Program-made: the position numbers and the translations under genes
The notes under the pieces: generated by a model
Told to the model about the DNA's origin: nothing
The model's input: the letters and a program-made list of their open reading frames with translations, nothing else
The model's database searches: none
Source of the DNA: Escherichia phage vB_EcoS_ESCO40
Sequence record: NC_106514.1
Length of the DNA: 64,000 nucleotides
Reading direction: 5' to 3' (one strand)
In this document: positions 8,636 to 30,091 of the stretch, in pieces
Position numbering within the stretch: the stretch's first letter is position 1
Layout: every line of letters starts with the position of its first letter

Positions 8636-9599
8636 TGTAAAAGGCTTTATTAGGCGTTGTCAAGAAGCATATTATCAAGGCATGTCTTTAATCTCTGATG
8701 AGGAGTATGATTGCCTGGTAAAACGCTTCCCGTTAGAAGAAGAGATCGGGCCTAAAGGTGATATTCCACATCTGTATCGTATGTATTCTTTACAGAAAGT
8801 TTATTATAATCGTGGAGATAAACCCCCATTTAACCCCTTAGGTCAGGTAGAAACTGATAAGTTAGATGGTTGTGCAATTTCTCTGTTATATATTAACGGC
8901 GAATTTGTCCAAGCATTAACCCGTGGTAATGGTATTCTAGGGAATGATGTCACAAGCAACGTAAGATTGCTGAACATTCCTAAAAAGATTTCCCAAAAAG
9001 TACCTACTCAAATCACTGGTGAAGTTCTAATTACAAAAGAAGTAGAAAATAAACGTAACTTTGCCTCTGGTGCTATTAACCTCAAAGATAGTGATGATTT
9101 CGTACAACGCATTGGAGAAGGCGGTTTAATCTTTGTTGCTTACGGTATCCAATGTTCTGCTGAATCTGTAGGTATTACAGAAGCATACTTAAAAGATATG
9201 CTTTGGCTAGAGAATGAGAACTTCTTAACAGTTGTTAATGTGCGTTCCTTCTTTAAATGGATTCCGACGGACGGTAAAGTTGTTCGTATTAATGACAACA
9301 ACAAATTCTTCCGTGAAGGCTGGACTAATAAATTCCCTCGTGGAGCATTCGCTATTAAAGAGGATGAAGAAGGCGAAATTACAACTCTTACTAAAGTTGA
9401 ATGGCAGGTAGGGGCTTCTGGTAAAGTAACTCCAGTTGGTTATTTCGAACCGGTAATTATTGATGATGCTACAATTGTTAAGGCGACTCTTAATAACGTT
9501 GATTATATTAACTCTCTCGATCTAGAGATCGGTTGCCAGATTCGAGTGATTCGTGCTGGTGGTGTAATCCCGTGCATAGTAGAGCGAGTATACGATTAA
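8625..9599 (+). CDS. NAD-dependent DNA ligase, N-terminal fragment (Ia-like, adenylation and OB regions)
   Basis: KLDG adenylation motif (KxDG); SDEEYD Ia-like segment; ends where a Zn-finger would follow in an intact LigA. Confidence 0.8.
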   Translation: MMNNVKGFIRRCQEAYYQGMSLISDEEYDCLVKRFPLEEEIGPKGDIPHLYRMYSLQKVYYNRGDKPPFNPLGQVETDKLDGCAISLLYINGEFVQALTRGNGILGNDVTSNVRLLNIPKKISQKVPTQITGEVLITKEVENKRNFASGAINLKDSDDFVQRIGEGGLIFVAYGIQCSAESVGITEAYLKDMLWLENENFLTVVNVRSFFKWIPTDGKVVRINDNNKFFREGWTNKFPRGAFAIKEDEEGEITTLTKVEWQVGASGKVTPVGYFEPVIIDDATIVKATLNNVDYINSLDLEIGCQIRVIRAGGVIPCIVERVYD

Positions 9600-9649
9600 T
9601 ACATAACCCTTTGCTACCCATCTACCATATCGGAATTATAAAGTGGTTA

Positions 9650-19947: not shown

Positions 19948-20478
19948 ATGAGAAATAAGCTATATTCCTTATTTTTGGAAGACCCTAAAAAATTCATTTT
20001 ATTAGTAAATAAATTCAGAGAAAGATTTTCTTATGATCCTGAGTCCGGCCTACTCTCTAGGAAAGTAGGAACGGGTGGTCAGTTAGCAGGATCTATAGTA
20101 GGCACGGATAATGGAAAAGGGTATTTAAGAACCTCATTTAATAATGAGCAGTATCTTGTACATTTAATTATTTATGCCATGCAGACTAATGAAATGGCAG
20201 AAGTAGTAGACCACAAAGACTTAGATAAGAAGAATAATAGATGGAATAATCTAAGACCAACTAATAAATCAGGTAATGAAAGAAACACAAGCGTAAGATC
20301 TAATAGTACCACAGGTGTTAAAAACGTATATTGGATACCTGGGAGACATAAGTATAGGGTTCAGTTTAAAATCCACGGAGAAACAAAATACTTTGGATAT
20401 TATGATACTATTCAAGAAGCAGAAGTAGTAGCTGATAGGGAACGTAGGCGACTACACGGAGAATTTGCCAGATCATGA
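19948..20478 (+). CDS. HNH homing endonuclease with AP2-like DNA-binding domain
   Basis: VDHKDLDKKNNRWNNLR HNH motif; C-terminal GVKNVYW...YRVQFKIHGETKYFGYY AP2-like segment. Confidence 0.8.
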   Translation: MRNKLYSLFLEDPKKFILLVNKFRERFSYDPESGLLSRKVGTGGQLAGSIVGTDNGKGYLRTSFNNEQYLVHLIIYAMQTNEMAEVVDHKDLDKKNNRWNNLRPTNKSGNERNTSVRSNSTTGVKNVYWIPGRHKYRVQFKIHGETKYFGYYDTIQEAEVVADRERRRLHGEFARS

Positions 20479-21452
20479 AAATACTCTTTAGTGCTGATCA
20501 CCATATAAAACTTGGGCAAGATAAAATTCCCAAAGAATGGCAGAAGAAAAGATTCTTAATGCTGGGAGACCGTCTAAATGATATATTCCATAATCATAAC
20601 TGTGATTTGCATATTATTGGTGGTGATTTATTTGATCATTCCGACCCGTCGTCGGAAGAAGTAGAACTTCTAGAAAAATTTATGTCTAGGCTAGATCATA
20701 TAGGAATGGTATTTACAGGTAATCATGAATTAATAACTAAAACCATTTCGTGCCTATATCATTATGCGGGGGTTATTAACAAAGTAACTAGTGGGAAGTG
20801 GGAAGTAATTACCAAACCATATCGTTCCCCTGAATTTGATATTGTTCCGTATGATGAGATCCATAAATCTAAGTGGAAACCTCCTGTATCAAAACTATGT
20901 TTCACGCATGTTCGTGGTGAAATCCCTCCGCATGTAAAACCAGAAATTGATCTAACTAAGTACAACTGTTATGATACTGTAATTGCTGGCGATTTACATT
21001 CTTATACTAATAGCCAGACTATCGGATCTACTAGACTTCTCTACCCAGGCTCTCCATTAACTACATCGTTCCATAGAGAACGCACAAAAGGTACAAATGG
21101 TTGCTTTATCATTGATACCGACACATTAAAAGTAGAATGGATTGAACTAGGTGATTTACCACAACTGATTCGTAAAACAATCGGAGCAGGTGAAGAGATG
21201 GAACCTAGTGATTATGATCGTGTAGTCTACGAAGTTACTGGTGACGTTGTTCAATTAAAGTCTATTAAAGACTCTGATTTATTAGATAAGAAGATTAACC
21301 ATCGAGTTACTAAAGATGCTAAGTTAAATCTTGTTGATCTTGATATGTTGGGCGAACTTGAACTTTACTTCCGTGAAGTCGAGAAGCTATCTCAAGGCGA
21401 CATTGATAGAATCTTGGCTAGAGCTGCGAAATATGTCAAAGATTACAATTAA
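20475..21452 (+). CDS. SbcD/Mre11-like nuclease
   Basis: Calcineurin-like phosphoesterase motifs SADHHI, GGDLFDH, TGNHE. Confidence 0.8.
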   Translation: MKILFSADHHIKLGQDKIPKEWQKKRFLMLGDRLNDIFHNHNCDLHIIGGDLFDHSDPSSEEVELLEKFMSRLDHIGMVFTGNHELITKTISCLYHYAGVINKVTSGKWEVITKPYRSPEFDIVPYDEIHKSKWKPPVSKLCFTHVRGEIPPHVKPEIDLTKYNCYDTVIAGDLHSYTNSQTIGSTRLLYPGSPLTTSFHRERTKGTNGCFIIDTDTLKVEWIELGDLPQLIRKTIGAGEEMEPSDYDRVVYEVTGDVVQLKSIKDSDLLDKKINHRVTKDAKLNLVDLDMLGELELYFREVEKLSQGDIDRILARAAKYVKDYN

Positions 21453-23271
21453 GACACTAAAATTTAGTAACGTTATGTCTTACGGTAAGGACATCGTAAT
21501 TCATTTCGATAAGAATCCAGTTACTCAACTAATTGGTGGCAATGGGCTAGGGAAATCCACCATCGCTACGGTTATCGAGGAATTGTTTTATAACAAGAAC
21601 TCTCGAGGTATCAAGAAGGATGCTCTATTCTCCTGGGCTTCTCCGAAGAAAGAATACGATATGCACGCTTACTTTTCAAAAGATGATGATGAGTATGAGC
21701 TGCATAAAGTTGTCAAGTCAACTGCTAAAGTAACGTTGATTAAGAATGGGGAAGATATTAGTGGGCACACGGCAACCCAAACATACAAGATGATTGAAGA
21801 GATTATGGGTGGTGACTTTCAAACATTCACCAAACTGATTTATCAATCAGTGGGTTCTAATCTAGATTTTCTAAAAGCAACAGATGCAACACGTAAGGCT
21901 TTTCTTGTTAACTTGTTCAATCAGGAACAATACAAAGAAATGTCGGAAACTATTAAGGCCGACCGTAAAGAAATAGCAAATACCTTAAATAATTTGCAGG
22001 GCCAAATGGCTGTAATTACGAAAATCCTTAATGGAAAAAATAATCTAGGAACTTTGCAGGAACCTGTAGAGGTGCCGGAGTTTGATGAAGAGCCATTAGC
22101 GCAAGAACTTACTGAATCGAAAATTAAGGCGGCATTAGCCAAGTCTCAAGAGGCTAATATTACTAAGTTGCGTAATTTGGACAAAGCTGTACAAGTTGCC
22201 GAACAATCTTTCGAACCTTTCAAAAATTTGCCCGCGCCCACCGACCAAAATGAAGAGATCTCGAGTGTTACGCGTGACCTAACGATTGTGACCTCACGTG
22301 CGAGCGAAGTTAAGAAACGTTATCAGAAGTTCAAGCAAGAGGCTTCGAATACTGAATGCCCTACTTGCGGTACTCATCTAGATACAACTGCTGCTCAAAA
22401 AGCAATGGATATGGCTAGAGTAGAATATGATCCTCTGTTCAAAGAGAAGCAATCTCTTGAAGCTAAGCTAGAACAGTTGAAGAAAGAACAACTTGAGTAC
22501 GTTGCGTATACTAGAGCAAAAGATGCTCTTGATAAAGCGGTGGTAGCTAGAGACGAGTTCAAAAATTCAATGAGTGATGCTTCTTTTGAAGAACTCAATG
22601 TGCAAATCCTACAGGTGCAAATCCGACAATTAGAACAGGCAATCGCTGATGGACGTTCTAAGGTTGCAATTGCCAAAGAGCATAATGCAAATGTAGAATT
22701 AGCCAATGCAAAATATAAAGCAAAGTTAGAACAGATTGAGAAAGCAGAAGCAGAAATGACTGAGATTACTTCCAAACTGAATGGAGTAGCCGAAGCTGTA
22801 GCTGATCTTGATATTCTAATTGCTGCTTTGAAAAATCTGGTGGGGTATAAACTAGAGCATAGTGTGAAAGTATTTGAAGAACTAATTAATAAATACCTTT
22901 CCATTATGACTGGAGGTAAATTCGCACTTGGATTTGAACTGGATGAAACGAAGTTACAAGTAGTAATCTTCAATGATGGAAACCGTACCAGTATGGAGAA
23001 CTGCTCTACTGGTCAGCAAAGTCGAATTAATCTAGCAACCCTGTTAGCTATTCGGATGCTGTTAACATCTATTAGTAAAGTTAATATTAATCTTCTATTC
23101 CTTGATGAAGTAATTAGCTTTATTGATACGAAAGGACTTGATACTCTCGTTGAACTATTAAATGAGGAAGAAAGTCTAAATTCTATCATTGTTTCTCATG
23201 GGCATACGCATCCATTAGCTCATAAGATTACTGTCAAAAAAGATGCAGAAGGATTTTCCTACTTAGAATAA
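21433..23271 (+). CDS. SbcC/Rad50-like ATPase
   Basis: N-terminal Walker A GGNGLGKST, central coiled coil with CPTCG zinc hook, C-terminal LLFLDEVISFID Walker B/D-loop; start taken at ATG 21433 (MSKITIK). Confidence 0.8.
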   Translation: MSKITIKTLKFSNVMSYGKDIVIHFDKNPVTQLIGGNGLGKSTIATVIEELFYNKNSRGIKKDALFSWASPKKEYDMHAYFSKDDDEYELHKVVKSTAKVTLIKNGEDISGHTATQTYKMIEEIMGGDFQTFTKLIYQSVGSNLDFLKATDATRKAFLVNLFNQEQYKEMSETIKADRKEIANTLNNLQGQMAVITKILNGKNNLGTLQEPVEVPEFDEEPLAQELTESKIKAALAKSQEANITKLRNLDKAVQVAEQSFEPFKNLPAPTDQNEEISSVTRDLTIVTSRASEVKKRYQKFKQEASNTECPTCGTHLDTTAAQKAMDMARVEYDPLFKEKQSLEAKLEQLKKEQLEYVAYTRAKDALDKAVVARDEFKNSMSDASFEELNVQILQVQIRQLEQAIADGRSKVAIAKEHNANVELANAKYKAKLEQIEKAEAEMTEITSKLNGVAEAVADLDILIAALKNLVGYKLEHSVKVFEELINKYLSIMTGGKFALGFELDETKLQVVIFNDGNRTSMENCSTGQQSRINLATLLAIRMLLTSISKVNINLLFLDEVISFIDTKGLDTLVELLNEEESLNSIIVSHGHTHPLAHKITVKKDAEGFSYLE

Positions 23272-23274
23272 AAC

Positions 23275-23757
23275 ATGGCTGTAGATAGTAGAGAGAAAGG
23301 TAAACGTGGTGAATATCAGGTAAGAGATATTTTACGTGAGCGTACAGGTCTTGAGTGGGAACGTGTTCCTGGCTCTGGTGCTTTTGGCCAGAGCCACGGA
23401 CTGAAAGGTGACATCTACCTTCCACCACAAAGCGGACACATTAGTAAATACTGCTTCGAAGTTAAGTGGTATAAAGATGATAATATATCAAGTAATTTAT
23501 TTAATGTTGGTGAATCCACTCTAGAGAAGTGGTGGCAGCAGTGTTCACGTGAAGGTGAGCAGATGAACTCCAAACCTGCATTAATATTCAAAAAAGACAG
23601 AGGACAGTGGTTAATAGCTTTGGATAGCTCAGACCCGATGGTTGACAACTTAATGAGTCGTACCCATATGGTCTTAAATAAGAAAGGCATGGAAATCGTA
23701 ATCGGTTTATTTGAGCCGTGGCTACATAATGCATCTGTTGAGGACTTAATTAAATAA
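23275..23757 (+). CDS. putative PD-(D/E)xK nuclease (Hjc/VRR-NUC-like)
   Basis: GEYQVRDIL ... GDIYL ... FEVKW spacing consistent with E...D...EVK catalytic pattern. Confidence 0.4.
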   Translation: MAVDSREKGKRGEYQVRDILRERTGLEWERVPGSGAFGQSHGLKGDIYLPPQSGHISKYCFEVKWYKDDNISSNLFNVGESTLEKWWQQCSREGEQMNSKPALIFKKDRGQWLIALDSSDPMVDNLMSRTHMVLNKKGMEIVIGLFEPWLHNASVEDLIK

Positions 23758-24632
23758 TGAGTAAATCCTGGGGAAAATTTATTGAAGAAGAGGAAGCTGA
23801 AATGGCTTCCCGTCGTAACCTAATGATTGTCGATGGAACTAACTTAGGCTTTCGCTTCAAACATAACAACAGTAAAAAACCATTTGCCTCAAGTTATGTT
23901 TCAACTATTCAATCTCTGGCAAAATCCTACTCTGCAAGAACCACGATTGTTTTAGGCGATAAAGGGAAGTCTGCATTTCGCCTAGAGCATCTTCCGGAGT
24001 ATAAAGGGAATCGAGACGAGAAATACTCTCAGCGTACGGAAGAGGAGAAAGCGTTAGATGAGCAGTTCTTCGAGTATTTGAAAGATGCTTTCGAACTATG
24101 TGAAACTACATTCCCAACCTTCACTATTCGTGGCGTAGAAGCAGATGATATGGCAGCTTATATTGTTAAGCTCATCGGGCATCTATATGATCACGTTTGG
24201 TTGATTTCTACTGACGGTGACTGGGATACCTTATTAACTGATAAAGTTTCTCGCTTCTCTTTCACAACACGTCGTGAATATCATCTTCGTGATATGTACG
24301 AGCATCATAATGTTGACGATGTAGAGCAGTTTATCTCTCTGAAAGCAATTATGGGTGATTTAGGGGATAATATCCGAGGTGTTGAAGGTATCGGGGCAAA
24401 ACGCGGGTATAACATTATTCGTGAATTCGGTAACGTTCTGGATATTATTGATCAGCTTCCATTGCCTGGAAAACAGAAATATATACAGAATTTAAATGCT
24501 TCGGAAGAGTTGCTTTATCGAAACCTAATTCTGGTTGATTTACCTACCTACTGCGTGGATGCTATTGCTGCTGTAGGTCAAGATGTATTAGATAAGTTCA
24601 CAAAAGATATTTTGGAGATTGCAGAACAATGA
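23757..24632 (+). CDS. D15: flap endonuclease / 5'-3' exonuclease
   Basis: 291 aa; N-terminal MIVDGTNLGFRF and central GVEADDMAAY motifs of FEN/5' nuclease family; matches the T5 D15 exonuclease as recalled. Confidence 0.9.
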   Translation: MSKSWGKFIEEEEAEMASRRNLMIVDGTNLGFRFKHNNSKKPFASSYVSTIQSLAKSYSARTTIVLGDKGKSAFRLEHLPEYKGNRDEKYSQRTEEEKALDEQFFEYLKDAFELCETTFPTFTIRGVEADDMAAYIVKLIGHLYDHVWLISTDGDWDTLLTDKVSRFSFTTRREYHLRDMYEHHNVDDVEQFISLKAIMGDLGDNIRGVEGIGAKRGYNIIREFGNVLDIIDQLPLPGKQKYIQNLNASEELLYRNLILVDLPTYCVDAIAAVGQDVLDKFTKDILEIAEQ

Positions 24633-25075
24633 TTAAAATTAAATTAACTCACCCAGATTGTATGCCTAAGATTGGTTCCGAAGATGCCGCAGGTATGGAT
24701 CTGCGAGCATTCTTTGGTACAAACCCTGCCGCAGATTTACGTGCTATTGCGCCAGGCAAATCCCTAATGATTGACACCGGTGTCGCGGTAGAAATTCCGC
24801 GAGGTTGGTTCGGTTTGGTGGTTCCTCGCAGCTCTTTAGGTAAGCGCCATTTGATGATTGCAAACACCGCTGGAGTGATCGACTCAGACTATCGTGGTAC
24901 TATTAAGATGAACCTTTATAACTACGGTTCTGAAATTCAAACTCTGGAGAATTTTGAAAGACTTTGCCAGTTAGTGGTACTACCGCATTACTCAACCCAT
25001 AATTTTAAAATCGTTGATGAACTAGGGGAGACTGATCGTGGAGAGGGTGGATTTGGAAGTTCAGGAAGCAAATAA
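24629..25075 (+). CDS. dut: dUTPase
   Basis: AAGMDL, VVPRSSLG and GVIDSDYRG dUTPase motifs. Confidence 0.85.
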   Translation: MIKIKLTHPDCMPKIGSEDAAGMDLRAFFGTNPAADLRAIAPGKSLMIDTGVAVEIPRGWFGLVVPRSSLGKRHLMIANTAGVIDSDYRGTIKMNLYNYGSEIQTLENFERLCQLVVLPHYSTHNFKIVDELGETDRGEGGFGSSGSK

Positions 25076-25301
25076 TTTTACTGATCCTAATATGGTAGGT
25101 ATTGATACTAATGTGTCAACTTATCAGACTAAAACTACAGAACCGGAAAGATTTGTACTAAAAACAGACAAAGAAGGTAATGTTACTTTCTGGGATCCTG
25201 AAGGTTTTGTAGAGCTTTGTACTAATACAGATAATGAGCAGTTAAAATTACTATTAACTATTTATAATCTTGGTATTATAGAAGGTTGTAGAAGAGAATA
25301 G
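25038..25301 (+). CDS. hypothetical protein (87 aa)
   Basis: ORF overlapping the dUTPase 3' end; weak start signals. Confidence 0.3.
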   Translation: MERVDLEVQEANNFTDPNMVGIDTNVSTYQTKTTEPERFVLKTDKEGNVTFWDPEGFVELCTNTDNEQLKLLLTIYNLGIIEGCRRE

Positions 25302-25686: not shown

Positions 25687-27366
25687 TTACTTCTGTACCA
25701 TTAGATTGACCAGTTCTCTGAGTTCAGCCAATTCAGCTTTCATCTCAGCCAACTCCCTATCCTGCTCCTGTACCACTGCCACGATATCTGCTAGTATCGC
25801 ACGATCGTTCAGGTTGAGCATTCCAGACATGCTACCGGAAAACGCGTAAATCTCATCCGCTTCTTTAGCTTCCTGAGCAACAAATCCGCGATCTTTGCGC
25901 CCATCTGATAGCCATTCAAACTCACGCGCAACAAGGCGGTTAATACGGTCACGTGGGGTGTTGCCTTCCGTATTGGTGGTGTCTGTGATCTTGTCTTTGA
26001 GGCGACGATCTGAACCGCCAGGTTGGATAAGGCCTAAATTAGTGTCGATACATGAATTTTCCCATTTAAACGCCCAATATTTATTACCTCCTACGGCTCT
26101 ATTAATATTTAGTTGTACGGCTCTAAATTGTGTATTACCTTCACGTATGCCACCAAATTCCCACCTATCGTCATACCAATGACCACGAATAATATTTACA
26201 TAGGTATTACCTTCGCTACTAGGAGTAACATTGAAAAACTCGATGGCATTGGGTTCTCCTGTATTACCTACGAAAAAACCACCTCTCCCTGGTACTGTTA
26301 CCACACCAATTGAGTTAACAGACATTACCTCCCGCAACGTACCTTCTTGTCCTTTTACTTCTAGTGCAGAATAAAAATCTGTCCCAAAAAGAATCTTGGT
26401 ACGCAATTGTGAGACATATGCTTCCGCGCCAGCAATATTGTATACAGATCGCACAGCACCGCCATAGGCCATTACGCCGTTAGATGGACTTGTCGCATCA
26501 CCATTAATAACACTCCACGAGGTATTCGCAGCCACGAACCCCCCAGAAGCACGGATTACCCAGACGCCGACAAAGTTTCGTGTAAGGATTTCGTCCCTTG
26601 ATGCCCCGTAGATAGGGCTTGAGCGTGAGGCGTCAAAATTTAATGTATTATAGCGCCCAGCTACTGCAATATTTCCTGTACTTGGAATTGCATCCCCATC
26701 CCCATTAGGAAAAATCGCATTATCAACAAAGAAAGCACCGCTAGCAGCAGAACCAAATACCTGAGCGTAACTACCCCCTGAGTAACTAGGAACAGCAGCA
26801 GTAATATTAGGCGCAGCGGATTCAAATAGCTGGCCATTTGCACCACTATTCCCACCATCACCACGACCGTAGAGAGCACGTATTGATCCTTGTTGCACAC
26901 CGTTCCTATCTGGCACACGGAAAGTAGTTGTACCGTCACCCAATGAGTATCTGCCACGCTGAAATTTATCTGCTAACCAAACTGAATCATCTATAGCCCC
27001 AACCATTTGTGCATACGCCCAAAGTTCAGGCCAGTCAGCCCTATTAAGAAGCTGTCCGTCAGAAACGACTTCGTATGGTTGAATATACGCACGACTATCT
27101 CGAAGGTGGAAATCACCAACACCGTAATTCATAACACCATTCATAGTGGGACCGACTGTACCGGTGTTAATCTTATTCTCTACCCAACGTTTAGTTGCGG
27201 CATCATAGTCCCCAACAGGATCCCCCGCAAGAGGGGTGGACCCAATAGGACGCACATTTAACCATGCTGCTGCACGGTCTGCAAGATCGGATAAATTGTT
27301 GTTTTTATCCATCTTTTCGTCTTTAAGTTTTGTAATATCCTGGGGGATATTAGTATAAGTAGTCAT
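25687..27366 (-). CDS. L-shaped tail fibre protein, distal part, with C-terminal intramolecular chaperone domain
   Basis: Gly/Ser/Asn-rich fibre-like sequence; C-terminal GGSDRRLKDKI...AELAELRELV resembles the autocleaving S74-type chaperone domain. Confidence 0.7.
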   Translation of the reverse strand: MTTYTNIPQDITKLKDEKMDKNNNLSDLADRAAAWLNVRPIGSTPLAGDPVGDYDAATKRWVENKINTGTVGPTMNGVMNYGVGDFHLRDSRAYIQPYEVVSDGQLLNRADWPELWAYAQMVGAIDDSVWLADKFQRGRYSLGDGTTTFRVPDRNGVQQGSIRALYGRGDGGNSGANGQLFESAAPNITAAVPSYSGGSYAQVFGSAASGAFFVDNAIFPNGDGDAIPSTGNIAVAGRYNTLNFDASRSSPIYGASRDEILTRNFVGVWVIRASGGFVAANTSWSVINGDATSPSNGVMAYGGAVRSVYNIAGAEAYVSQLRTKILFGTDFYSALEVKGQEGTLREVMSVNSIGVVTVPGRGGFFVGNTGEPNAIEFFNVTPSSEGNTYVNIIRGHWYDDRWEFGGIREGNTQFRAVQLNINRAVGGNKYWAFKWENSCIDTNLGLIQPGGSDRRLKDKITDTTNTEGNTPRDRINRLVAREFEWLSDGRKDRGFVAQEAKEADEIYAFSGSMSGMLNLNDRAILADIVAVVQEQDRELAEMKAELAELRELVNLMVQK

Positions 27367-27376
27367 TGATCACCTC

Positions 27377-27643
27377 TTATGCCCATTTGCGTACATCAGG
27401 ATTCTTAATAATGAATTGTTCGATGTCTGACAAGTCTATATTATCTCCTACTATCCTTATATTTATGTAATAACCTTCTTTACCAATAATAGCAGGGGTT
27501 TTACTTTTAGGGTCGTCTACCACAGGGATAAAACCAATTTCATCTATAAACACGTTACCGTAGTTTGTCTTAAGCCACCCACTATCAACGACAACATCCA
27601 GATAATGTTTTTCATCCTTGAATTGTAAATTAATATCTTTCAC
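27377..27643 (-). CDS. hypothetical protein (88 aa) between fibre genes
   Basis: Tightly packed between the two fibre ORFs. Confidence 0.45.
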   Translation of the reverse strand: MKDINLQFKDEKHYLDVVVDSGWLKTNYGNVFIDEIGFIPVVDDPKSKTPAIIGKEGYYINIRIVGDNIDLSDIEQFIIKNPDVRKWA

Positions 27644-30091
27644 TTAAACTTTCTCCCGCATTTGACTATCTGTTAATACTCTATTCCATATTCTAAGGTT
27701 ACGAATATGACCATACAATTTAGTTGAATCTGAAAGTCTACCGCCTATTTCTACTAGTGCGTCCGCGTCCGTTCCTTTCCATGTAAAACCGTGTGAGGTC
27801 TCACCCCTATTACCATTAACAAACGAGGTGACCTCTACATCGCCACGGAGAATAAAACCAAATACATGTGGAGAAAATTGTTTTTCAAATGAATAACCTC
27901 TGGACAGTATAGTTGATCCATCCTCAGTTACCACATACGTGTAAGGTGTAACGGAGGTTCTGTCAAATTCCGCAACAAATGCTTTTCCTCTTACGAAGTA
28001 GTGGTTGTTATCCACTATCATTGGGTATATATTATCTAAGTGAAAGCTATCCCAGTTAACACTTACCTCAGCAAGTAATGAAATATTTGTCCCGAAGAAA
28101 TTATTCCTTGCTGGTATAGTAACATAGTCTAGAGCCCTTGTTGCAGGCGTGCTTCCCGTAATAATGAAGGAGGATGCACAAAAACCCTTTTCAAATTGCG
28201 GGTTACAAAATGATATTTCATCCCCAACTTGTAAAGGCTGACCATCCACCCGACAATAATTCACCGAACCAATAGAATTTCCGCCAATCTCCACAAATTT
28301 ACACATAGCTTCAACTTTCAACCATCCGTTGTCTTCTCTATATATTCTATGTGCTATAGTCCCGCTCCCTTCTACTACAGAAGAAATTTCGCCGGTTCCG
28401 CAACTTATGACAGATCTAGCGCCGAGAATAAGTCCTCCGTCCTCACCTACTAAATAAAATTGAGGGGTAATATAGATATCCTGGCCTGCTTTTACTCGTA
28501 TGGATAAAGAGACATATTCATTTTTCTGACAGTTAATCGCATTTGCTGTTTCACAATAAAATAGGTTTGGCGTATCACCTTGACCATTTTGGTTTACAGT
28601 TGCCGTTGTGTATGTAAAACCATACTTATCAACACCATATGTAACATCGATACGATGTCTATCCGTATTTAAAGAAGCCGGGTCGTTACTGAAAGTAATG
28701 TGATTTGTCCTCTGCCCTTCAATCAAGAGTCCTTGCTTTTCAAATCTAGGCTCATCGATATTGGCAATACAAAACTCACCGTGTTTGTTTATATATGTTG
28801 CATTTGATGCGCGGGAGAAACTGACAACCTTATCCGAGGGCATTGTAATAACATCTTCACCAACTGTTATTTTCTTGTATCCTGGCGAGTAACCTGCAAG
28901 CATATCAAGCGAGTCATTAAAGGGAATCCATACGTCAGGGAATGGTTGAAGATCCGGAGCCCTGTTAGCTGCAATTTCCGCACGGTCTGCTTCTGCTTTT
29001 GCACGGTCTGCCTCTACTTTAGAGCTATTTGCACTACCAGCAGCATTGCTAGCTTGTTGCCCGGCCTCAACAGCACTATTACCTGCTTGTGTAGCAGAAG
29101 CAGCAGCTTGGTTTTTTAAAGTTGTTGTCTCAGATACCGCGCTATCCTTAATACCTTGTGTATCTGTTTTTAATTGCTCAACCTCTGCTTTTAAAGCTGT
29201 TGTCTCTGTTACAGCACTATTTTTAATGGCCTGGGTATCAGATTTTAACTGTTCGACATCCGCTTTTAAAGCTGTTGTCTCTGTTATAGCACTATTTTTA
29301 ATGGCCTGGGTATCAGATTTTAATTGTTCAACATCTGATTTAAGTCCTTGAATAGTAGTTACAGATTGGTTGGCGGAGGCTGCAGACCCTGCCGCATTAG
29401 TTTCGCTAGCCTTAGCTTTTGTTTCCGAGGTTTTTGCATTGGTTTCAGAGATTTTTGCCGCAGATGCCGATGCAGCAGCTTGCCCAGAAAATATTTCCGC
29501 CTCATTCCTAAAACCGCTAGAATCAGCTGCTGATTGAGCTGCATTAGTCTCACTGACCTTTGCATTACCCTCGCTAAGTTTTGCATCAGTAGCTGATTGA
29601 GCTGCATTAGTCTCACTTGCCTTTGCATTAGTCTCACTAATTTTTGCAGCAGCAGCTGATGCGTCAGCATTAGTTTCACTAGTCTTCGCATTAGTTTCAC
29701 TAGTCTTCGCATTAGTTTCACTAGTCTTCGCATTAGTCTCGGATATTTTAGCTGCGGCAGCGGACTCTGCAGACTTATTGGCTGACGCTGCGGACTGAGT
29801 AGCAGAGGTAGCAGACTGAGTAGCAGAAGCTTCTGAAGCTCCAGCAGAAATAGCAGCTTCCTGTTCAGAGTTCTTAGCATTAAGCTCTGAAGTCTTAGCT
29901 GCTATTTCAGAATCTTTTGCAGCCGCAGCAGACTTAGCAGCGGCCTCTATAGAGGATACTAACTCATTAGCAGTAATAGAGCTAATAGAATTTCCAAGAG
30001 TTACTGTGTATCTAGGAAATTTACTAGCAGTAGCTTTAGTATCATCAATATTTAATATTTGTTGTACAATAATCTTAGTAGTTATTGCCAT
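27644..30091 (-). CDS. L-shaped tail fibre protein, proximal part (repeat-rich shaft)
   Basis: N-terminal MAITTKII... then SETNAK heptad repeats and 24-aa DVEQLKSDTQAIKNSA repeats. Confidence 0.7.
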   Translation of the reverse strand: MAITTKIIVQQILNIDDTKATASKFPRYTVTLGNSISSITANELVSSIEAAAKSAAAAKDSEIAAKTSELNAKNSEQEAAISAGASEASATQSATSATQSAASANKSAESAAAAKISETNAKTSETNAKTSETNAKTSETNADASAAAAKISETNAKASETNAAQSATDAKLSEGNAKVSETNAAQSAADSSGFRNEAEIFSGQAAASASAAKISETNAKTSETKAKASETNAAGSAASANQSVTTIQGLKSDVEQLKSDTQAIKNSAITETTALKADVEQLKSDTQAIKNSAVTETTALKAEVEQLKTDTQGIKDSAVSETTTLKNQAAASATQAGNSAVEAGQQASNAAGSANSSKVEADRAKAEADRAEIAANRAPDLQPFPDVWIPFNDSLDMLAGYSPGYKKITVGEDVITMPSDKVVSFSRASNATYINKHGEFCIANIDEPRFEKQGLLIEGQRTNHITFSNDPASLNTDRHRIDVTYGVDKYGFTYTTATVNQNGQGDTPNLFYCETANAINCQKNEYVSLSIRVKAGQDIYITPQFYLVGEDGGLILGARSVISCGTGEISSVVEGSGTIAHRIYREDNGWLKVEAMCKFVEIGGNSIGSVNYCRVDGQPLQVGDEISFCNPQFEKGFCASSFIITGSTPATRALDYVTIPARNNFFGTNISLLAEVSVNWDSFHLDNIYPMIVDNNHYFVRGKAFVAEFDRTSVTPYTYVVTEDGSTILSRGYSFEKQFSPHVFGFILRGDVEVTSFVNGNRGETSHGFTWKGTDADALVEIGGRLSDSTKLYGHIRNLRIWNRVLTDSQMREKV
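29115..29335. repeat. 72-bp tandem repeat (about 3 copies) inside the fibre gene
   Basis: Near-identical units CTTTTAAAGCTGTTGTCTCTGTTA...CAGATTTTAA read directly. Confidence 0.8.
29667..29742. repeat. 21-bp tandem repeat (3.5 copies) inside the fibre gene
   Basis: GCATTAGTTTCACTAGTCTTC repeated head to tail, encoding TSETNAK heptads. Confidence 0.85.

Follow-up and report, generated by a model that had tools for sequence, protein, structure and literature searches.

The stretch of DNA analysed here (the window) comprises 64,000 nucleotides of Escherichia phage vB_EcoS_ESCO40 (sequence record NC_106514.1). Positions 23275..23757 of the + strand hold an exact ATG-to-TAA ORF of 160 aa, as a first-pass annotation of this DNA had claimed, and this ORF is the orthologue of gene D14 of phage T5. 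The annotation had also set it between an SbcC-like gene and a flap endonuclease, with which the Pfam matches of both neighbours agree. The genes of this region are the following:

20475..21452, + strand: D12, an SbcD/Mre11-like metallophosphoesterase (calcineurin-like), from Pfam Metallophos, T5 exo1 and synteny
21433..23271, + strand: D13, an SbcC/Rad50-like ATPase, from Pfam AAA_15, SMC_N and SbcC_Walker_B and T5 exo2
23275..23757, + strand: D14, a predicted Hjc-like PD-(D/E)xK nuclease of family PF24608 (PDDEXK_15), with the TAA at 23755-23757
23757..24632, + strand: D15, the T5 flap endonuclease/5'-3' exonuclease, from Pfam 5_3_exonuc_N and 5_3_exonuc and T5 exo5
24629..25075, + strand: dUTPase, the final conserved gene of the syntenic block, from Pfam dUTPase (E = 1.8e-25) and synteny

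The start codon of D13 is uncertain, ATG 21433 being the first ATG of an ORF that opens at 21331. A megablast search with positions 22800-24200 recovered 444 phage records, all of them T5-like (Tequintavirus and relatives) and at 80-99% identity, and the nucleotide identity to T5 itself was 96.2%. The window is thus a piece of a T5-like genome. The counterpart of our ORF in T5 is annotated as "D14 protein", and its neighbours there are D13, exonuclease subunit 2, on one side and the flap endonuclease D15 on the other. At the protein level, the window D14 is 99-100% identical to that of T5 and other sequenced Tequintavirus isolates, and several IMG/VR genomes carry a version with 100% identity. 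Few residues separate it from T5 D14 (dN 0.005). The gene is under purifying selection, with a dN/dS of 0.078 in the comparison with T5, the one pair for which the ratio is usable given that dS is saturated in pairs at 60-74% identity.

The gene is tightly packed between its neighbours. D13 stops 3 nt ahead of the D14 ATG (23269..23277), which has no normally spaced Shine-Dalgarno, and at the other end the D14 stop overlaps the D15 ATG (ATAATG), with the D15 Shine-Dalgarno (GAGGA, 23740-23744) located inside D14. The short gap, the overlap and the internal ribosome binding site suggest that D13, D14 and D15 are translationally coupled. In an older T5 record (AY587007) the start of D15 was annotated 45 nt further downstream. 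The SbcCD-FEN recombination cluster named in the first-pass annotation is real and conserved, as seen with tblastn in 80 related IMG/VR loci, where the order helicase-D11-D12-D13-D14-D15-dUTPase was found in every sufficiently long one. Actually, this order holds down to 41% identity in D14, with D13 only 31-34% identical. Furthermore, members of the same family occur in Herelleviridae, at the following positions:

8995-9603 of Kayvirus locus L082: PF24608 member
8989-9543 of Nitunavirus locus L083: PF24608 member

These Herelleviridae proteins have 184-202 aa, and the Kayvirus and Nitunavirus genes score 241 and 225 bits against PF24608. They are located in a replication module, 2.5-3.4 kb downstream of SbcD-/SbcC-like genes, following helicase-SbcD-SbcC-(anti-)sigma-primase and preceding NrdI/NrdE/NrdF. 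Thus the link between PF24608 and SbcCD genes recurs in two unrelated phage families, Demerecviridae and Herelleviridae.

The surroundings of these genes showed several other features. An ORF of 176 aa coding for an HNH_3 endonuclease (19948..20478, + strand) is inserted between D11 and D12; T5 (AY587007) lacks it, and among the 80 related loci a copy at 97-99% identity was found in just three (L006, L010 and L025), a patchy occurrence that fits the insertion of a mobile homing-type endonuclease. In two related genomes D13 and D14 are split by an insertion of ~500 bp (5534-5977 in L021 and ~5502-6001 in L025), and the protein encoded by the one in L021 is also HNH-like but distinct, sharing 32% identity with the HNH protein of the window, indicating that this junction is also a target of mobile endonuclease genes. 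D13 contains the site described in T5 as 'major single-stranded nick 4' (22231..22237 of the window), whose surroundings are identical in both phages over the 41 nt compared, so that the window phage probably has the same nick site. Downstream, an ORF of 87 aa (25038..25301, + strand) overlaps the 3' end of the dUTPase gene and corresponds to T5 ORF123 (DUF7369, E = 1.9e-28). Beyond it, on the - strand (25687..30091), the window has three ORFs in place of the single T5 gene for an L-shaped tail fibre of 1396 aa. The first (559 aa) carries a Peptidase_S74 intramolecular-chaperone domain, another has 88 aa, and the third (815 aa) contains 'SETNAKT' repeats rich in Ala, Ser, Thr and Glu, its Laminin_G_3-like C-terminus falling slightly short of the Pfam cut-off. 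These ORFs probably represent a receptor-binding fibre arrangement different from that of T5.

D14 belongs to Pfam family PF24608 (PDDEXK_15, "Phage putative PDDEXK endonuclease"), which it matched with 162.1 bits (E = 1.4e-47) for a gathering cut-off of 27 bits, residues 4-160 covering all the profile positions (1-164 of 164). It also matched PHROG 244 ("RusA-like Holliday junction resolvase") with E = 8e-37. As a member of PF24608 and PHROG 244 the window copy is full-length, has the same D13-D15 placement as T5 D14 and shows no substantive difference from them. An exhaustive profile search over 1.84 billion cluster representatives (clusters at 50% identity) gave 1,670 relatives at E <= 1e-3, of which 235 were found at E <= 1e-10. 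All 48 of the divergent relatives sampled matched PF24608, and one of them also matched the Pfam Hjc family (PF01870, E = 5e-4). One sequence, P0156 (1605 aa), scored E = 8.5e-24 with 28 matching stretches and was discarded, as it consists of perfect tandem repeats of ~53 residues and appears to be an artefact of assembly or of the repeats rather than a relative. With a distant member as query, tblastn picked up 1,548 phage records that carry the family, among them Herelleviridae of Staphylococcus, Listeria, Bacillus and Enterococcus. The Pfam match, the 1,670 relatives, the dN/dS and the invariant residues described below rule out a chance ORF. No match of D14 was found in NCBIfam or PADLOC, and so there is no sign in these collections that it belongs to a defence or anti-defence family.

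The first-pass annotation had read a PD-(D/E)xK catalytic core in the motifs EYQV, GDIYL and FEVKW, and all three could be located, in the order expected for such enzymes (a Glu in helix 1, an Asp at strand 2 and the (D/E)xK in strand 3): GEYQV contains E13, GDIYL D46, and FEVKW E62 and K64. The corresponding codons are:

23311..23313, + strand: E13, in helix 1, predicted first metal-binding acid, equivalent to E9 of Pyrococcus furiosus (Pfu) Hjc, invariant and aligned
23356..23379, + strand: W28-G35 (WERVPGSG), the invariant loop preceding the catalytic Asp, from conservation
23410..23412, + strand: D46, the Asp of the PD motif, which is invariant and aligns with D33 of Pfu Hjc
23458..23466, + strand: E62-V63-K64 (E62 at 23458-23460 and K64 at 23464-23466), the ExK motif, located in strand 3, whose counterpart in Pfu Hjc is E46-V47-K48

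The acidic residues, whose absence would have spoken against a nuclease, are present and conserved. No exception to E13, D46, E62 or K64 occurs among 36 homologues of 45-82% identity, and the same is true of K8, G9, R11, R30, the VPGSG loop, H41, K44, Q89, R92, E93, K107, D108 and W112. Among 48 more divergent homologues (22-47% identity) K8, G9, E13, S34, G35, D46 and K64 are still invariant, and E62, R30, P32, G45, Q89 and P101 are kept in at least 90%. The retention of the E...D...ExK tetrad across homologues of 22-82% identity argues for a catalytically active enzyme. The loop W28-G35, in which S34-G35 is invariant family-wide, is likely a flexible loop that would bind DNA, equivalent to the R25/SG loop of Hjc.

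We modelled the D14 monomer with AlphaFold2 from the alignment of 36 sequences, and the model had a mean pLDDT of 86.6 and a pTM of 0.83, low confidence being limited to the extreme N-terminus and the loop 31-40. It consists of a helix (12-24), short strands at ~29 and ~47, a strand (59-66), a helix (82-96) and a strand (100-107), followed by further C-terminal strands and helices. When compared by Foldseek with the PDB, the Hjc resolvases of A. fulgidus, P. furiosus and S. tokodaii occupied ranks 1-17 (best E = 1.8e-3, probability 1.0), and restriction endonucleases and other PD-(D/E)xK proteins came after them. The best structural matches are therefore nucleases of the Hjc/Hje type and not a non-nuclease fold. 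Among predicted viral structures the whole fold, C-terminal extension included, recurs in many phage proteins (TM 0.67-0.82), some of them labelled as Holliday junction resolvase.

The relation to Hjc was also found in profile-profile comparisons. A profile built from aligned Hjc/Hje sequences of the PDB (1gef, 2wcz, 1ob8 and 4tkd) matched that of the D14 family over D14 residues 8-116 with a probability of 88% (E = 3.2e-6), and placed E13, D46, E62 and K64 on E9, D33, E46 and K48 of Pyrococcus Hjc, which we take to be the catalytic residues of that enzyme. The same four columns were invariant in a MAFFT alignment of D14, two Herelleviridae homologues, one distant member and Pfu Hjc. By profile and by structure D14 is thus homologous to Hjc, with the catalytic E/D/E/K in equivalent positions. 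The PF01870 profile gave no match to D14 at E <= 1, hence none at the family threshold, and the Kayvirus homologue reached E = 0.015 and 15.7 bits, under the cut-off of 21.1 bits. Direct sequence searches of the PDB with D14 alone or with the profile of 36 sequences gave nothing but sub-significant matches, the best meaningful one being the N-terminal part of Tth15-6 Hjc (7bgs; E = 0.26-1.1), while matches to a tyrosine phosphatase and to DHFR were set aside as noise. Family membership, residue conservation, the Hjc profile alignment and the structural matches all agree, and support the assignment of D14, predicted from sequence and model, as a PD-(D/E)xK nuclease family protein with an Hjc-like core. 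The two more specific proposals of the first-pass annotation parted ways. A Holliday-junction-resolvase-like enzyme is what the top structural matches and the aligned tetrad indicate. The VRR-NUC-like alternative fell, with no Pfam match to VRR_NUC (PF08774) at E <= 1 and a lone sign in a BFVD entry named 'VRR-NUC domain containing protein' (rank 42, E = 0.07).

The comparison with the archaeal Hjc/Hje enzymes (PF01870; 1gef, 2wcw, 1hh1, 1ob8) shows the same order of elements (KG..E helix, R..SG loop, D and ExK) and a catalytic tetrad that aligns residue for residue. Unlike them, D14 comes from a bacterial phage. Its invariant loop ahead of the catalytic Asp (VPGSGAFGQSHGLKGD) is longer, its strand 3 is followed by an insertion, and its C-terminus extends ~45 residues further. 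Among phage enzymes, Hjc_15-6 of the Thermus thermophilus phage Tth15-6 (7bgs/7bnx) is able to cut X-shaped DNA, its motif reads E-SD-EVK (E10, D40, E53 and K55), and in its crystals the loop equivalent to D14 31-40 is disordered (PMC8805305). Its sequence similarity to D14 is under significance, and at the catalytic Asp it has SD whereas D14 has GD. Tth15-6 is a thermophilic phage, and its genomic context presumably differs from that of D14. T7 endonuclease I and RecU are also PD-(D/E)xK enzymes but of other families, and T4 endonuclease VII, RusA and the phage RuvC (bIL67) differ from D14 in both family and fold; the Pfam search of D14 gave no match to the families of T7 endonuclease I, RecU, endonuclease VII, RusA or RuvC.

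With these data D14 is probably an Hjc-like PD-(D/E)xK endonuclease that resolves Holliday junctions or branches in the replicating DNA of T5. By analogy with Hjc, we infer that it would act as a homodimer that reads the shape, and not the sequence, of four-way or other branched DNA. E13, D46 and E62 would hold Mg2+, K64 would help to activate the water and stabilise the transition state, and paired nicks would be made near the branch point. In this way the enzyme may clear the junctions and branches arising from recombination-dependent replication in T5 concatemers, together with D12/D13, a nuclease of SbcD/SbcC type, and D15, the flap endonuclease, all encoded in the same coupled gene string, and the DNA could then be finished and packaged. 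The best-supported reading is that of a metal-dependent, structure-selective endonuclease, whose role would be analogous to that of T7 endonuclease I or T4 endonuclease VII and whose fold is homologous to Hjc. In the literature on T5 D14, on PF24608/PDDEXK_15 and on phage enzymes of Hjc type, our search met with no experimental characterisation of the D14 family. In a CRISPRi-ART screen of T5, "D14 (Holliday junction resolvase)" was classified as Semi-Fit, with D12 and D15 (10.1101/2023.09.18.558157, Suppl. Text S3), and its authors caution that the Semi-Fit calls in T5 are imprecise. Given the coupling of D14 and D15, polarity may also contribute to the knockdown phenotype. D14 has been asserted to be essential for replication, with no data added (PMC9961651). 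The 'D14' that appears in a paper on DRT4 is not this gene but part of the residue mutation D149A.

The closest competitor keeps the Hjc-fold nuclease and changes its substrate. D14 might be the endonucleolytic partner of D12/D13 instead of a symmetric resolvase, acting on other branched or damaged DNA (stalled or reversed forks, D-loops, 3' flaps, nicked junctions, and the bases of hairpins or cruciforms) to create or process ends that SbcCD and FEN then resect. We consider this unlikely, even if the tight coupling to D13 and D15 (3-nt gap and stop/start overlap), the link with SbcD/SbcC genes in two unrelated phage families and the invariant loop (WERVPGSG...H41.LKGD) and C-terminal extension, which have no Hjc counterpart, would all suit it, as would the promiscuity on branched DNA typical of phage resolvases (PMC3864405). 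The closest characterised relatives (archaeal Hjc and Tth15-6 Hjc) cut four-way junctions, and in Herelleviridae the PF24608 gene stands apart from SbcCD, with sigma/anti-sigma, primase and small genes in between. In fact, this possibility differs from junction resolution in substrate preference alone, which sequence cannot reveal. A wider version, in which the PF24608 enzymes as a whole are dedicated branch and hairpin cutters of the phage SbcCD (Mre11-Rad50-like) and not stand-alone resolvases, appears rather less probable again. If true, a conserved SbcD-SbcC-Hjc-like trio in Demerecviridae and Herelleviridae would convert branched intermediates into ends for resection, and the invariant loop and C-terminal extension of PF24608 would mediate the partnership with SbcCD.

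Other functions fit much worse. The genomes of the T5 group carry specific nicks (PMC10644984), and a putative nuclease encoded by a phage of T5 type, with an annotated major nick site ~1 kb upstream inside D13 and identical in the window, could be thought to make the site-specific single-strand nicks of the virion DNA. This is very improbable, because the family (1,670 clusters, with myoviruses of Staphylococcus, Bacillus, Listeria and Enterococcus) extends far beyond the nicked T5 group and every close structural relative is structure-specific and not sequence-specific; in addition, the CRISPRi-ART supplement equates sciB with T5.156, the small terminase subunit, and not with D14. It is hardly credible either that D14 is an inactive PD-(D/E)xK-fold protein with a DNA-binding or accessory role, given the conserved tetrad, or an RNA endonuclease of the tRNA-intron type, a label found on one Serratia phage record that fails by fold and by profile. 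A RusA-type Holliday-junction resolvase, the least probable of all, has in its favour the PHROG 244 match (E = 8e-37) and the same name in many GenBank/RefSeq phage records, but it is contradicted by the fold and the profile results: RusA structures were absent from both structural match lists of D14, which gave no Pfam match to the RusA family (PF05866) either.

The label 'RusA-like Holliday junction resolvase' has spread to hundreds of records of T5-like, Vibrio, Staphylococcus and Bacillus phages. For D14 it is wrong, since the fold is that of an Hjc-like PD-(D/E)xK enzyme and not RusA, and the choice between both names affects the assignment of the active site and the design of mutants. 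D14 itself is not new: its family has a curated Pfam entry that already predicts a PD-(D/E)xK endonuclease, and the gene is called a resolvase in publications, in databases and in a published screen, so that as a discovery the finding carries little weight. What is added here is the support for the active site at the level of residues, the correction of the "RusA-like" name and the recurring link with SbcCD in two phage families. The family is large (~1,700 clusters), and includes T5-like siphoviruses and the Staphylococcus, Listeria and Bacillus myoviruses that are used in phage therapy, in all of which a gene of the D14 family is near-universal.
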